Positions 6,753-10,819 of a stretch of DNA of 32,000 nucleotides are shown here, piece after piece. The notes beneath the pieces were generated by a model. It was not told where the DNA came from and ran no database searches. It was given only the letters and a program-made list of their open reading frames with translations. Position 1 is the stretch's first letter; each line of letters begins with the position of its first letter. The position numbers and the translations under genes were made by a program. The DNA lies in the NCBI GenBank assembly GCA_041441465.1, contig JASDSY010000026.1, positions 210,969 to 242,968 of the forward strand, given 5' to 3'. Source of the stretch: Candidatus Wallbacteria bacterium. Lineage in GTDB: Bacteria; Muiribacteriota; UBA9980.

Positions 6753-8561
6753 CTATTTGTCGTGTTTTCGATAAACCTCAAGGTTAATCATTGAAAGCAA
6801 ATATGGTATCCTTAAAACGGTATCGCGGTCATACTGTTTTATGGCATCGGGCAATTTTTCGTAAGCGACGAGATCCGGATGAATTTTATTTTTATCATCG
6901 CGAATTTCACCATGCTTCCAGCCGCGACTTATTTTTTCGGCACACCAGCGCTCGTGCTCGCCTTCTGCCAGAATTTCAATATCATTCGCCGCGAATTTAA
7001 AATCACAACCTGAATTCTTTAAAGGCCTTATACTATATTTAAGTGAAATTAATTTCGCGAGCATATTCCTGGCCTGTTTTCTGTTGGATTCCTTTATTTC
7101 AGTTGAAAGTTCATTCCATGACTCCGGCTGATTCAACTTCTGGCCGCGTGTTTTCTGATTATTTATATAATCCGCGTGAATTGCATGGGCAAATTTCTCA
7201 TATACGCCGTTTACAAGAATTTCCGGCGTCAACACTTCGCTCAGTATCTCGAATATATGTATATTGCGATATGATTCTTTGTCCTCTAAAAACATATTCA
7301 AAATTGACGAAATCTGTTCACAGCATACATATACCGGCACGTTAAATTCCTCGAGCCGTTTTGAAAATTCAAGTATAACAGACGTATTAAAAATTTCCTG
7401 AAGCGTGCATATATAAATTGCCGAATATTCAGGTTTTCCTGAAACATCAAAAATAAACTCAAACCTTTTTAACGATCTTGTGTCAAAATTAAAAGGCATT
7501 ATTTCCAGTTCACAATATTTAGTAATTTTAGGGAAATTAATTTCCAACTCTTCTTTTTTCAACTTATTTTCACTGTCAATTAACGTTATTTTCACTTTCC
7601 GGCCGGTTTTTAGCAATTCCCAGCGGTTAATAAGGTTAATCAAATGGCTTTCGATAAAATTCTCGAGACCGATTACCAATATATTCGGAACACCGGCATT
7701 AGCGCCTGCTCTGTTATTACCGCTATTAAACGGCATATATTTATTAAGCAGTGTCTCGCTAGCCGCGTCAAATACATTATAAAATTCAAATTTCACCGGT
7801 ACGGCCACTCCATTACCGGCCGTGCAAACGCTCTCGCAATTGAAATTATTTTCGAACTCATTTTCACGAAGCTTGTTATAAATATAATTATCATTTATGT
7901 TTATGATGCAATTTAGCGGCCCCGGCCTTTTAATATTTTTAAGCTCATTTTTTAACGCGTTGATAATAAGTGAATTCAAATTATCATCATCGATCATGCA
8001 AAATAAATACTCGGCATTCACTAAACCGGCTTTTTTTAATGTTTCCGAATCTTCGGCATTGCCTGTAATGACATCTGCGCCGAGTTCGCCGCATACCGGT
8101 GCATAGCTGTTATCTTTGTTTTTTTCAATAATCACTATTTTAAAATTATAATCAAGCAGCTCATTTAGAATGTAAAAGCTTTTGCGGTTAAGTCCGCAGA
8201 TTATGACATGATTTTTATAAGCTCCGATGCGAAGCGCCTGTATCTGGCCCGAAAAAAATTGCAAGAGCGCCTTGATTGCTGCATAAGCCGGCAGCACCGG
8301 CGCAGCCAGCCTCGCAAAATCAAGCGGCAGATTTTGCCGGACATGCATTACCCCGGAATTAAGCGTAAAAAGCTGCAAAGTGGAAAATATGAGATCCCAT
8401 AATGTAAATTCTTCATTATTTGTCTTAAAATATTGAGAAAACCCAAAAATACCGCATAAAAAAGTTATGCACGACATTATAATTATGAATTGCCATTCAT
8501 AACTATACAATGCCAATTTTAGTTTTTTTATGCGTTTCTCTATTCCTGATCTTTTCCGCAT
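6753..8561 (-). CDS. membrane protein: 2-TM channel-like N-terminus, TrkA-N/RCK-like Rossmann domain(s), C-terminal RyR domain
   Basis: AGGTGA sits about 8 nt upstream of the ATG.
- TM/pore-like region, aa 22-103: WQFIIIMSCITFLCGIFGF ... LWDLIFSTLQLFTLNSGV ... LPLDFARLAAPVLPAYAAIKALL.
- Rossmann segment: HVIICGLNRKSFYILNELLDYNFKIVIIEKN ... GADVITGNAEDSETLKKAG.
- Second Rossmann-like segment: NILVIGLENFIE...KVKITLID.
- C-terminal RyR-repeat signature, about nt 6771-7199: HAIHADYINN...SWNELSTEIKESNRKQA and EGEHERWCAEKISRGWKHG...KIHPDLVAYEKLPDAIKQYDRDTV. Confidence 0.85.
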   Translation of the reverse strand: MRKRSGIEKRIKKLKLALYSYEWQFIIIMSCITFLCGIFGFSQYFKTNNEEFTLWDLIFSTLQLFTLNSGVMHVRQNLPLDFARLAAPVLPAYAAIKALLQFFSGQIQALRIGAYKNHVIICGLNRKSFYILNELLDYNFKIVIIEKNKDNSYAPVCGELGADVITGNAEDSETLKKAGLVNAEYLFCMIDDDNLNSLIINALKNELKNIKRPGPLNCIININDNYIYNKLRENEFENNFNCESVCTAGNGVAVPVKFEFYNVFDAASETLLNKYMPFNSGNNRAGANAGVPNILVIGLENFIESHLINLINRWELLKTGRKVKITLIDSENKLKKEELEINFPKITKYCELEIMPFNFDTRSLKRFEFIFDVSGKPEYSAIYICTLQEIFNTSVILEFSKRLEEFNVPVYVCCEQISSILNMFLEDKESYRNIHIFEILSEVLTPEILVNGVYEKFAHAIHADYINNQKTRGQKLNQPESWNELSTEIKESNRKQARNMLAKLISLKYSIRPLKNSGCDFKFAANDIEILAEGEHERWCAEKISRGWKHGEIRDDKNKIHPDLVAYEKLPDAIKQYDRDTVLRIPYLLSMINLEVYRKHDK

Positions 8562-8731
8562 TATAAATTCACCTGTCTTCCGCTTAACACTAAAGTTACA
8601 AAGGACTAAAAAAATTAATCAAAAAAATATTCTTATTTTATATTATCCGCCTACTTTAAAGGATTATCATATAATCAAAGATTTTATTAATTATAAAAAT
8701 CTTTGAAATCTAATTAAAACTTTATTTGATA

Positions 8732-10819
8732 TTAAAATAAAATTTTAATGAAAAACATCAAAACTAAAACAACAGCCAGAACGATATAAACGAAATTATC
8801 GGAAGTATATCCAAAATAATCCTGACACGAGCTTTTTGACTCTTTTGACAATAAGCGTTCATGCTCAAATTCATCGGCAGTTCCCTTAAATATATCACGC
8901 ATGGCGGCTTTCGGAATTTTAGAACGGAAATCCTCCTCGGTGTCGTACTTTATTCCGTTATTTATGCTGATATAACGATAAAATAAAACGGCGTAAAATT
9001 CTATCACGTCCAGATTAAACTGCCTTAATATCTTCGTATATTCGTTTATGTGTTTTATAAAATCATCATTTTTCCTGGCACCTTTTATTTTTTCACATAA
9101 TTCGCTCAGTATTCCGTGATTCTTACGCTCGGTTTCCTTCACGTGCCGGCCGGTACTCAAAGAGCTTTCCAATTTTTTTATATCTGCCTGCAGCTGTATG
9201 TTTCTTTTATTTAATTCATCATTTTCATCTTCGACTGCTTTCAAATCCTCGTTTGTTTTCTCGTTTAATTCCTTTTGCTTTTTCTTTATTTCAATAATTT
9301 CTTCTTCAAGTTTTTTTATTTTTCCGCTGTAAAAAAACTTGAACCATACACCGTTTATCTCTTTATACTTAATATCGATTTCGAATTTAAAGGCTTTTTC
9401 ACTTTCTTTAAGCTGCTCAAGCCTTTTATTAATTTTAGATTCATTTAATTTTATACGCTTGACATTCGAATCGTACTCGATCTGAAAATCGGATTTTTCC
9501 CTTTGAAAGCTTTTTATTTCTTCTTCGGTAAGGCTGATTTTATTCTTTTTTTCATTCAAAATGGCTTCGATTTTTTCAACCGCGCTTTCGATTTTAGCTT
9601 TTTCATCAAACGCGCAGCCGCCTGGCATAAATATAGGAGTTATTTTTTTGCCGTTTTTATCGGCGCATATTATTTCCTTATGCACTTCAGGCGAATTCAA
9701 AGAATTTTCAGAAACAAAAAGGAAAACCTCGCTGCAATTAATTATTTTGTTTTTTAATTCATTGTCCCAGTCAACGCCGGTTTTAATTCCTACGTCATAC
9801 CAATAATCGTAATCCGCGCCGCTTAATATCGAAAGGAGCCTGTATACTTCAGCGCAGTCCTTGCGCGAATAGCTTATAAAAATAAAATCGGCGGCACGTT
9901 TTGAGCATAACGGTCTTTTCGAGTTAGCTGCTTCGCCTTTATTTTTAAGTCCAGCCGGCAACGCAGTTTTTTCTGAACGTTCATTCATTTTTTTAGACGA
10001 GTTGATTTTTTCGAGCACCGCCTGCGCGTGTTCAGCGACATTCTGGTTAACGTCCTTCAAGGCTTTCTGTAAAAGAGGACGCGCATTATCCGGCGTTATC
10101 GATTCCAGGACATATACAGCAGAATCGCGCATCCATATTTCGCCGGACGAAATCATTCTTTCTAGCTTCGCAACCATAAGCAATTCATCAAATTTAGCAA
10201 GCGTTTTCAAAACATTCGCCCTTATCCTGTTATCGTCATCGTTTATATATGGAACTAATAATTCAATAATCTTATCGGAATCTATGGACTCGAGACCTTC
10301 GACGGCGTTAGCGGCCACTCTTTTATCGGCATGCTTCAAAAACGGCGCAATAACAGAGATATGGCTTTCATCGCCAAAATGACCAATTAATTTCAAAAGC
10401 GTTGCAATAACACGATCATCAGTCTCCATCCCCAGCCGCTCAATTAAAAAAGGCAATGCAGATTCATCGTTAACCCATAACAATTCTTTAAGTGCCGCCT
10501 GCTTTTCGCGCGAGCTGCCCGAAGAAATTATTGAATATAATTTACCGCCGTCATATTCTTCGGAACAGCTGTCAAATGCCGGCAGTGAATGAGCGCCCCC
10601 CGCAGTTGAATCAGCCGGCCGATAACCGCCGGAAAAATTCTTTATTGCCTTGCGCGCAAAGTACCTCACCGAAACGTCTGAATCAGCGGTAAGTTTATAA
10701 AGCTGTTCCAGAACTTCGCTGTCGTCATATTCGGAAATATTTTTTATAGCGTTTATTTTCAGGCGGCTGTCATTTGACAACATGCCCTTTAATAAAGCTT
10801 CCTTTTCGCTTTTACGCAT
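8732..10819 (-). CDS. HEAT-repeat / TIR-domain / coiled-coil protein with a C-terminal transmembrane tail anchor (695 aa)
   Basis: - HEAT-like repeats of about 30 aa, aa 1-275: DSDVSVRYFARKAIKNF, DDRVIATLLKLIGHFGD, ADKRVAANAVEGLESI, DDNRIRANVLKTLAKF, EIWMRDSAVYVLESI, DVNQNVAEHAQAVLEKI.
- TIR, aa 309-401 (nt 9617-9895): DFIFISYSRKDCAEV...DYWYDVGIKTGVDWDNELKNKIINCSEVFLFVSENSLNSPEVHKEIICA, with Glu382 (GAA, 9674-9676) at the TIR catalytic position.
- Lys/Glu-rich heptad coiled coil, aa 405-556.
- Terminal TM segment: FVYIVLAVVLVLMFFIKILF.

There is no signal peptide and no obvious SD. Confidence 0.85.
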   Translation of the reverse strand: MRKSEKEALLKGMLSNDSRLKINAIKNISEYDDSEVLEQLYKLTADSDVSVRYFARKAIKNFSGGYRPADSTAGGAHSLPAFDSCSEEYDGGKLYSIISSGSSREKQAALKELLWVNDESALPFLIERLGMETDDRVIATLLKLIGHFGDESHISVIAPFLKHADKRVAANAVEGLESIDSDKIIELLVPYINDDDNRIRANVLKTLAKFDELLMVAKLERMISSGEIWMRDSAVYVLESITPDNARPLLQKALKDVNQNVAEHAQAVLEKINSSKKMNERSEKTALPAGLKNKGEAANSKRPLCSKRAADFIFISYSRKDCAEVYRLLSILSGADYDYWYDVGIKTGVDWDNELKNKIINCSEVFLFVSENSLNSPEVHKEIICADKNGKKITPIFMPGGCAFDEKAKIESAVEKIEAILNEKKNKISLTEEEIKSFQREKSDFQIEYDSNVKRIKLNESKINKRLEQLKESEKAFKFEIDIKYKEINGVWFKFFYSGKIKKLEEEIIEIKKKQKELNEKTNEDLKAVEDENDELNKRNIQLQADIKKLESSLSTGRHVKETERKNHGILSELCEKIKGARKNDDFIKHINEYTKILRQFNLDVIEFYAVLFYRYISINNGIKYDTEEDFRSKIPKAAMRDIFKGTADEFEHERLLSKESKSSCQDYFGYTSDNFVYIVLAVVLVLMFFIKILF

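Follow-up and report, generated by a model that had tools for sequence, protein, structure and literature searches.

The 32,000-nucleotide stretch of Candidatus Wallbacteria DNA analysed here (positions 210,969 to 242,968 of contig JASDSY010000026.1, assembly GCA_041441465.1; hereafter the window) carries two neighbouring genes on its minus strand, which we call gene A and gene B. Gene A encodes a membrane protein of 602 amino acids (aa) in which a two-helix pore precedes tandem RCK domains and a C-terminal RyR domain. Gene B encodes a tail-anchored HEAT-TIR protein of 695 aa, which has a counterpart with 100% identity in a metagenome-assembled genome of Candidatus Wallbacteria. An initial annotation of this DNA had described two adjacent, co-oriented genes 170 nt apart, and the list of open reading frames (ORFs) of the window places both at exactly the positions given there. 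The spacer between them contains weak promoter-like matches only and no terminator-like site, and a Shine-Dalgarno-like AGGTG precedes the ATG of gene A. The pair has a guanine-plus-cytosine (GC) content of 34–35% (window positions 7001–10000) compared with 40–47% in the neighbouring genes, which is compatible with horizontal acquisition as an islet.

Table. Positions of the gene pair and its features in the window (residue numbers refer to the encoded protein; TM, transmembrane helix)
Feature	Positions	Strand	Basis
Gene A, two-helix pore, tandem RCK and RyR Repeat12-like domain; proposed signal-gated effector	6753..8561	minus	ORF; Pfam; AlphaFold2; Foldseek
Gene A, pore module: TM1 (22-47), pore helix (54-65) and filter-like loop (together 54-77), TM2 (78-102)	8256..8498	minus	Secondary structure of the model; GsuK/MthK fold
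Gene A, RCK1 (TrkA_N Rossmann domain), about residues 116-262	7776..8216	minus	TrkA_N at 119-231, E 6.9e-14 (Pfam)
Gene A, RCK2-like second Rossmann domain, about residues 293-443	7233..7685	minus	Alternating strands and helices in the model; matches to tandem-RCK folds
Gene A, RyR repeat 1, about residues 446-513	7023..7226	minus	Second Pfam RyR stretch
Gene A, RyR repeat 2 with putative ligand-pocket residues, about residues 525-598	6768..6989	minus	Pfam RyR at 528-585, E 3.5e-18
Spacer between gene B and gene A	8562..8731	minus	170 nt, AT-rich
Gene B, HEAT-TIR-linker-tail-anchor protein; proposed sensor and signal generator	8732..10819	minus	ORF; Pfam HEAT_2, TIR_2
Gene B, HEAT-repeat region, about residues 1-280; proposed ligand- or partner-sensing part	9980..10819	minus	HEAT_2, four stretches, E 1.6e-24 (Pfam)
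Gene B, TIR domain, residues 309-438	9506..9895	minus	TIR_2 at 313-402, E 6.7e-14 (Pfam)
Gene B, codon of E382, catalytic Glu position	9674..9676	minus	SPEVHKE starts at residue 376
Gene B, charged helical linker, about residues 440-620; probably coiled coil (low confidence)	8960..9502	minus	Lys/Glu-rich; weak matches to SMC/crescentin-type coiled coils
Gene B, C-terminal transmembrane tail anchor, residues 672-695	8735..8806	minus	Kyte-Doolittle peak of 2.98 at the extreme C-terminus
Best sigma-70-like promoter match, upstream of gene B	10952..10981	minus	TTGAAA-18-TATAAT, 11 of 12 positions; consensus match only

The TIR domain of gene B matches the TIR hidden Markov model (HMM) built in this analysis with an E-value of 2.9e-41. 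Its E382 stands in the sole invariant column of an alignment of three reference Thoeris ThsB TIR domains with 24 TIR domains encoded beside relatives of gene A (partner TIR domains). The residue aligns with the glutamate of the 'VHKE' motif of SARM1/TIR-1, the partner TIR carrying the SARM1 'VHKEI' motif, and the best relatives of the partner-TIR profile among PDB sequences are Cat1 and the TIR-1/SARM1 NADases. This is in agreement with the initial annotation, which had recognised a TIR protein with a glutamate at the catalytic position and had given it a C-terminal tail anchor; a hydropathy scan locates that anchor in the last 24 residues. The HEAT region shows 28% identity (E 3e-22) with the N-terminal HEAT repeats of a protein encoded directly upstream of a relative of gene A in another locus (L001, described below).

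For gene A, an AlphaFold2 model was built on 122 family members (pLDDT 92, pTM 0.89). It contains, in order, a basic N-terminal helix, TM1, a re-entrant helix, a loop, TM2, a Rossmann domain, a second Rossmann-like domain and a helical C-terminal domain that consists of two helix-helix-strand repeats. In a Foldseek search of the PDB the top match is GsuK (E 7.6e-11), followed by CASTOR, TrkA, full-length MthK and Repeat12 of human RyR3; the matches to the tandem-RCK proteins GsuK, TrkA and CASTOR span 410–470 columns and include both Rossmann-like domains. The arrangement by which MthK/GsuK-type channels are recognised, i.e., a two-helix pore with a re-entrant pore helix, is present in the model. 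The pore of the family is marked by the motif Y-x-x-L-Q-L-F-x-L-E-S-G, which reads FSTLQLFTLNSG in gene A, and the conserved positions are Y59, Q63, L64, F65, L67, E/N68, S69 and G70. No K+ selectivity filter of the TVGYG or GYG kind is found in gene A, where the filter position reads L-N-S-G (L-E-S-G in the family), and the pore, lacking a K+-selective filter, is therefore probably non-selective for cations.

In RCK1, the nucleotide-binding GxGxxG motif is degenerate in gene A (GLNRKS; G123-L-N125-R-K-S128) compared with GLGRKG in the family, where it is intact in about 85–90% of members (G125 in 103 of 122, G128 in 112 of 122); E146 of the same domain is conserved in the channel family. Thus, the description of gene A as a K-channel-like membrane protein given in the initial annotation holds for the two-helix pore, the RCK Rossmann domains and the RyR domain, but not for a K+ filter, which is missing, nor for an intact RCK1 motif.

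The C-terminal domain of gene A scores 66.1 bits against the Pfam RyR profile (PF02026; gathering cutoff 27.4) in two stretches. In repeat 1, residues A458, H462, Y465, W482, N493 and R494 are kept in at least 90% of the family. Repeat 2 matches Repeat12 of the animal receptors RyR1, RyR2 and RyR3 with E-values from 1e-17 to 5e-25, the best match being the Repeat12 chimera 6uhi (5e-25), and Foldseek aligns the tandem repeats of the model with RyR3 Repeat12 over about 190 columns (TM-score about 0.55). Closer at hand for function are RyR-domain proteins of phages, which are 33–47% identical to repeat 2 of gene A. These proteins defeat Thoeris and bind 2'cADPR, 3'cADPR and cADPR (cyclic ADP-ribose) at nanomolar affinity (PMC13232231; 10.64898/2026.06.04.730250). 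One of them, RyR Tad gp68, binds 1''-3' gcADPR with a dissociation constant of 43 nM, and also 1''-2' gcADPR and cADPR, through contacts with H129/W132, K147/H154 and K170/D171 (10.64898/2026.06.04.730250).

When gp68 is aligned with gene A and conservation is counted over the 122 family members, most of this pocket is retained. H129 corresponds to H536 (His in 121 of 122), W132 to W539 (Trp in 106, another aromatic residue in 14), and K147 to R554 (Lys or Arg in 111). The remaining contacts vary more: H154 corresponds to H561 (His in 49, Ser in 38, Asn in 20, Thr in 11), K170 to Y577, where Lys is the commonest residue in the family (58 of 122), and D171 to D578 (Asp in 77, Asn in 33). With cADPR isomers as ligands of the phage domains and the residues that contact them preserved in gene A, the sensor of the pair is likely to be its RyR domain. 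The initial annotation had left the choice between the RyR and the Rossmann domains open; the evidence from the phage proteins and the conserved contacts favours the former, and the Rossmann route is the weaker one for gene A because of its degenerate GxGxxG motif. Neither of the two preprints on phage RyR proteins, both from 2026, mentions a bacterial TIR-linked RyR protein (PMC13232231; 10.64898/2026.06.04.730250).

The same pocket admits another use, in which the RyR domain of gene A would be a glycosidase or a sponge, i.e., a built-in off-switch or immunity function, with the channel part serving another purpose. There is precedent in the phage protein RyDEP, which cleaves cADPR isomers with a catalytic His/Asp dyad (PMC13232231). 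The equivalents of the dyad in gene A are H536 and D578, and the split between Asp and Asn at position 578 hints at catalytic and non-catalytic subsets of the family. However, the catalytic residues of RyDEP also occur in homologues that are non-catalytic sponges (PMC13232231), so that glycosidase activity cannot be read from the sequence of gene A. In addition, the RyR domain is permanently fused to a pore and a gating ring in thousands of clusters, as it would be in a ligand-gated effector, and the two-gene loci have no further conserved gene that could be the effector. We consider this explanation quite unlikely.

The association of the two genes was examined in relatives of gene A. A word-indexed search returned only 7 relatives, whereas a full profile search recovered at least 3682 clusters at 50% identity (E<=1e-30) from many phyla, the top 150 matches all being full-length proteins of about 600 aa. 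Loci were taken from genomes (27) and metagenomes (33), with additional exact look-ups, translated in six frames and searched with the HMMs built in this analysis; dereplication at 70% identity left 38 channel clusters. The hosts include Wallbacteria, Desulfobaccales, Chloroflexota, Aminicenantes, Eubacteriales, Thermoguttaceae and uncultured lineages. The TIR calls that were checked all match Pfam TIR_2 (10 of 10, E 3e-9 to 1.7e-27).

A TIR gene lies within 500 bp of the channel gene in 9 of the 38 clusters and within 3 kb in 12, and TIR density falls from 2.52 per 10 kb at 0–0.5 kb to 0.27 at 0.5–3 kb and 0.07 at 3–10 kb. The density beside the channel gene thus exceeds that at 3–10 kb about 36-fold (Poisson p ~8e-10 against the distal rate), and the enrichment is seen in at least six phyla, with channel relatives adjoining TIR genes in Desulfobaccales, Chloroflexota, Aminicenantes, Eubacteriales, Thermoguttaceae and metagenomes. 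Counting genes for DUF4062-STAND proteins as well raises the number of clusters with a neighbour of either kind inside 3 kb to 16–17 of 38; of the 22 TIR or DUF4062 neighbours, 18 run in the same direction as the channel gene. All-versus-all clustering of the neighbouring ORFs yielded one recurrent super-family, made up of multidomain TIR, DUF4062-STAND and RyR proteins, in 24 of the 38 clusters; apart from antisense noise, no other recurrent neighbour family emerged from these clusters.

Lack of synteny in other genomes had been named beforehand as grounds for abandoning a functional pairing, and the opposite is found. That the two genes merely happen to be adjacent and are functionally unrelated would suit the unique overall architecture of gene B, the 170-nt gap with its weak promoter-like sites and the many channel relatives that have no TIR neighbour; the enrichment of TIR genes beside the channel across phyla, the predominant co-orientation of the neighbours and the want of any other recurring neighbour family make coincidence extremely improbable. 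Two further relationships were considered for the channel family and rejected. Ten unusually long members, inspected as potential 'Rosetta stone' fusions of TIR and channel, carry an extra RyR, HD or DUF3616 domain and no TIR domain. A phage origin of the channel was also dismissed, no relatives of gene A being found in the viral contigs of IMG/VR.

The linkage bears as well on a reading in which the TIR protein is an NAD+-depleting effector and the channel senses bulk NAD+, ADP-ribose, ATP or ADP through its RCK domains, its RyR domain or both. GsuK, the best structural match, has been crystallised with NAD and with ADP according to the titles of its PDB entries, and both are reported to gate it. 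Human RyR3 Repeat12 binds ADP and AMP-PCP (PDB 9l9b, 9ls7), the TIR profile is closest to NADases, and channel relatives without a TIR neighbour must answer some endogenous ligand. However, the RCK1 motif of gene A is degenerate, phage RyR domains prefer cADPR isomers, which they bind in the nanomolar range (PMC13232231; 10.64898/2026.06.04.730250), and a TIR protein that depletes NAD+ would work without a partner of its own, which fits poorly with the tight, co-oriented linkage. This reading is therefore judged unlikely.

The interpretation that we prefer, and to which we give an even chance of being right, is that the pair forms a membrane-bound Thoeris-like module in which the product of the TIR enzyme binds the RyR domain and gates the channel, with cell arrest or death as the outcome. 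The HEAT and coiled-coil parts of gene B would sense a cue and bring about the assembly of its SARM1-like TIR domains, which would then convert NAD+ into a second messenger derived from ADP-ribose, most likely a cADPR isomer. As the effector, gene A would probably form a tetramer, a P-loop channel of the GsuK kind that carries tandem RCK domains and the RyR domain at its C-terminus. The messenger would bind in the pocket formed by H536, W539, R554, H561 and D578 of the RyR domain, and the RCK gating ring would open the pore, probably allowing non-selective passage of cations. Arrest or death of the cell would follow from the ion flux and the loss of membrane potential, in the manner of abortive infection. 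A Thoeris-like pair of sensor and effector had been put forward, with reservations, in the initial annotation, and the linkage across phyla, the conserved glutamate and the conserved pocket residues lend support to it. Of the elements of this scheme, the domain anatomy and fold, the retained catalytic and pocket residues and the linkage of the genes are observed, whereas the activity and product of the TIR enzyme, ligand binding, gating, conduction and the biological role are predictions.

A number of observations weigh against this module. Conduction by gene A is a prediction for a pore that has no canonical selectivity filter, and the equivalents of the RyDEP dyad noted above mean that its RyR domain could degrade the signal instead of sensing it. 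Co-transcription of gene B and gene A, as judged from sequence, is only a possibility. In its full architecture gene B is a singleton; roughly half of the channel clusters lack a TIR or DUF4062 gene in their vicinity, and some channel relatives sit among housekeeping genes, e.g., next to acetate kinase and PTA (locus L018) or a DUF350 gene (L002), so that the channel is not strictly dependent on a TIR protein. PADLOC gives no match for gene A and only weak ThsB-like matches for gene B. Furthermore, no defence genes are found in the neighbourhood of the pair in the window, whose other genes encode ABC exporters, a giant Ig-like protein, a transglycosylase and DUF2760 and HSP70-like proteins and carry no defence-island signal, and among 122 neighbour proteins from 16 related loci, a small sample from poorly studied phyla, about 5 have PADLOC matches other than TIR. 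No defence-island context was found in the window or, within this sample, in the related loci, and a role of the pair in defence remains our inference.

These last points bring in physiological signalling by the same chemistry, in which TIR proteins would act in the manner of receptors for cues from the envelope, the environment or other cells and would modulate ion flux through the channel without killing. Such a role is suggested by the topology of many partner TIR proteins, which is that of surface receptors (a TIR domain joined by one TM helix to a WD40, TPR or Septum_form domain on the outside), by the fact that neither a defence-island context nor relatives in viral contigs were found, and by the very large size of the channel family, whose members are often encoded alone. 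On the other hand, the TIR partners differ widely in their sensor parts and several TIR paralogues occur at some loci, and STAND NTPases, a BrnT/BrnA toxin-antitoxin pair and patchy islets of low GC content are typical of conflict systems. Moreover, every bacterial TIR signalling system characterised so far is anti-phage according to a survey of TIR systems (10.64898/2025.12.03.692087). Physiological signalling is, in our estimate, unlikely, although it is the most probable of the alternatives to the Thoeris-like module.

The related loci (cited by number and position) illustrate how variable the partners of the channel are. In L001, which holds the closest non-self homologue of the channel (42% identity), the gene 60 nt upstream encodes HEAT repeats followed by DUF4062, a STAND NTPase and WD40 repeats, and a convergent gene downstream encodes the TIR domain that comes closest to the one in gene B. 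The non-TIR parts of partner TIR proteins comprise HEAT, WD40, TPR, phosphofructokinase or Septum_form domains or nothing recognisable, and two or three TIR genes surround one channel gene in L007, L008 and L039. In many partners an N-terminal TIR domain is followed by one TM helix near residue 200–260 and a repeat domain that faces outward, a layout that, as with the tail anchor of gene B, would put the TIR domain at the inner face of the membrane, near the cytoplasmic domains of the channel. Proteins in which TIR and TM are followed by WD40, TPR or Septum_form are encoded at L007:187-2985, L008:12180-15080, L015:8465-9853, L017:11828-12982 and L037:2951-5227; their outward domain is predicted and their layout resembles that of Toll-like receptors. 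At L011:12448-14127, directly downstream of a channel homologue, TIR_2 is fused to phosphofructokinase (PFK, E 4.5e-43).

DUF4062-STAND genes also recur, adjacent to the channel in 4 clusters and within 3 kb in 7. DUF4062 was considered as a TIR-like domain and rejected as such, since a profile-profile comparison of TIR and DUF4062 gave a probability of only 12%; it is therefore tallied separately from TIR here, and one partner TIR protein has a marginal DUF4062 match. The DUF4062-STAND proteins are large and carry WD40 or TPR repeats (L001:2916-9941 and 13902-17591; also L048, L049, L040, L041, L043, L051 and L005). The island of L001 contains, in addition, a Tubulin_2 gene (L001:18081-18956) and a giant gene for a Pkinase-ankyrin protein (L001:1-2846), features typical of 'conflict systems' in complex bacteria.

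The RyR domain itself is not confined to the channel. Proteins of about 850–900 aa that combine RelA_SpoT, a nucleotide pyrophosphokinase domain, with LSDAT_prok SLOG and a C-terminal RyR domain are encoded beside the channel in 5 dereplicated clusters. They are found at L013:405-2930, L022:14475-17156 and L056:11737-14286, and also in L036, L039, L042 and L047, sometimes together with TIR genes. Other RyR fusions in channel neighbourhoods join the domain to a STAND/AAA NTPase (about 840–1000 aa), to WD40 repeats or to a DUF6036 nucleotidyltransferase (L005:4929-7439, L008:16334-19081, L019:6301-9321, L037:5304-7979, L048:2171-4906, L010:6280-8970 and L011:9485-10465). From this distribution, the RyR domain would seem to be a receptor module used repeatedly within a broader network of nucleotide signalling.

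Taken in its broadest form, the proposal describes a native bacterial pathway that leads from a TIR enzyme through a messenger of the cADPR type and a RyR repeat to a P-loop channel, with the same RyR sensor wired to RelA_SpoT-SLOG and STAND/AAA NTPase outputs; we put this forward tentatively, as less likely than not. If it is true, SARM1-like TIR proteins, some of them surface receptors with the topology of Toll-like receptors, make a messenger that directly gates a channel via a Repeat12-type domain, and gene A would be the first case of a RyR repeat acting as the ligand sensor of a channel, within a wider signalling network centred on RyR. The link between cADPR and the ryanodine receptor in animals has long been debated, and the bacterial pathway would be its prokaryotic counterpart, perhaps its source. 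It would add a ligand-gated P-loop channel and a host-side RyR sensor domain to TIR-based immunity or signalling, and the RyR sponges and glycosidases of phages could then be decoys or derivatives of a host receptor domain. With only 602 aa, gene A would offer a small model for the binding of cADPR-family messengers by Repeat12-type domains and the transmission of that binding to a channel gate, a question that has accompanied animal ryanodine-receptor biology for decades, and the size and phylogenetic spread of its family show that such channels are not rare.

The remainder of the window has features of its own. Upstream of the pair lies a gene for a 318-aa lipoprotein-like protein with an fn3 domain (window 11086-12042, minus strand), whose start overlaps the end of the giant gene at 12042; the latter encodes the surface protein with Ig-like repeats (5161 aa, window 12042-27527, minus strand), in which Big_5 was found in the scanned C-terminal 985 aa. 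At window 28561-32000, on the plus strand, a DUF2760 gene is followed by two HSP70/MreB-like genes in what looks like a conserved cassette.

Among known systems, Thoeris (types I–XI) offers the closest comparison. Like the present pair, it places a TIR protein with a catalytic glutamate beside a protein in which a domain that binds a small molecule is coupled to an output that is toxic or acts on the membrane, and some Thoeris loci, like some channel loci, have several TIR genes per effector gene. The survey of TIR systems defines Thoeris types V–XI and about 29 putative types, and assigns membrane effectors, as proposed here for gene A, to types II, V, VI, VII and X (10.64898/2025.12.03.692087). 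A GsuK-like RyR channel is not among the effectors ThsA to ThsL described there, and in the text and the part of Table S1 that were searched 'RyR' and 'TrkA' occur only inside amino-acid strings (10.64898/2025.12.03.692087). Whereas ThsB of Thoeris is small, the TIR proteins of the channel loci are large, with a TIR_2-type domain fused to HEAT, WD40, TPR or transmembrane parts, and no defence-island context was found for them.

Type X Thoeris shares with the pair the combination of a TIR protein with a predicted ion channel. According to the survey it consists of a ThsB TIR protein and an 'ion channel' effector, ThsK, in Bacillus sp. BH32, B. cereus Q1 and Vibrio, the signal being still unknown (10.64898/2025.12.03.692087). 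We traced the type X TIR protein of B. cereus Q1 to its loci, where the co-oriented gene beside it in the B. cereus group encodes a 246-aa multi-pass membrane protein without Pfam, RCK or RyR match; that this is ThsK we infer from its position, since the paper does not state it. The presumed ThsK is found at L068:3316-3987, L069:3247-3987 and L070:1283-2023, with lengths of 223–246 aa as gene calls differ (the 246-aa form was scanned), and on the other side of the type X TIR gene lies a convergent 380-aa gene with a weak match to nucleoside 2-deoxyribosyltransferase. The type X TIR domain belongs to ThsB_TIR (PF08937), that of gene B to TIR_2 (PF13676). With TIR families that differ and a presumed effector that is unrelated to gene A, type X was rejected as the same system. 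Plasmid matches of the type X TIR protein proved to be type II Thoeris loci with Macro-domain effectors.

The anti-Thoeris proteins RyDEP (phage DyoEdafos) and RyR Tad gp68 (phage vB_PatP_CB1) have PF02026 and the pocket residues in common with gene A. They are small, soluble homodimers with one repeat each, which sequester or cleave the signal to counter defence, whereas gene A is a cellular, host-side protein with two tandem repeats fused to a channel and adjoins a TIR gene. With GsuK and MthK, gene A shares a two-helix P-loop pore followed by cytoplasmic RCK domains, and with GsuK also the tandem RCK arrangement in each subunit; it differs from them in its low identity (10–12%), the lack of TVGYG, the degenerate RCK1 motif and the additional C-terminal RyR Repeat12 domain. 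Animal ryanodine receptors likewise combine a P-loop cation-channel architecture with Repeat12, homology being limited to the repeat domain. Those receptors are giant channels for Ca2+ release, with six helices, where Repeat12 lies at the periphery and has a putative role in cADPR sensing, in contrast to the 602-aa two-helix channel of gene A. A 2020 survey of conflict systems in multicellular prokaryotes makes no mention of RyR, TrkA or DUF4062 (PMC7159879). Set against these systems, the pair looks like an undescribed Thoeris-like system with a new effector and a new sensor.

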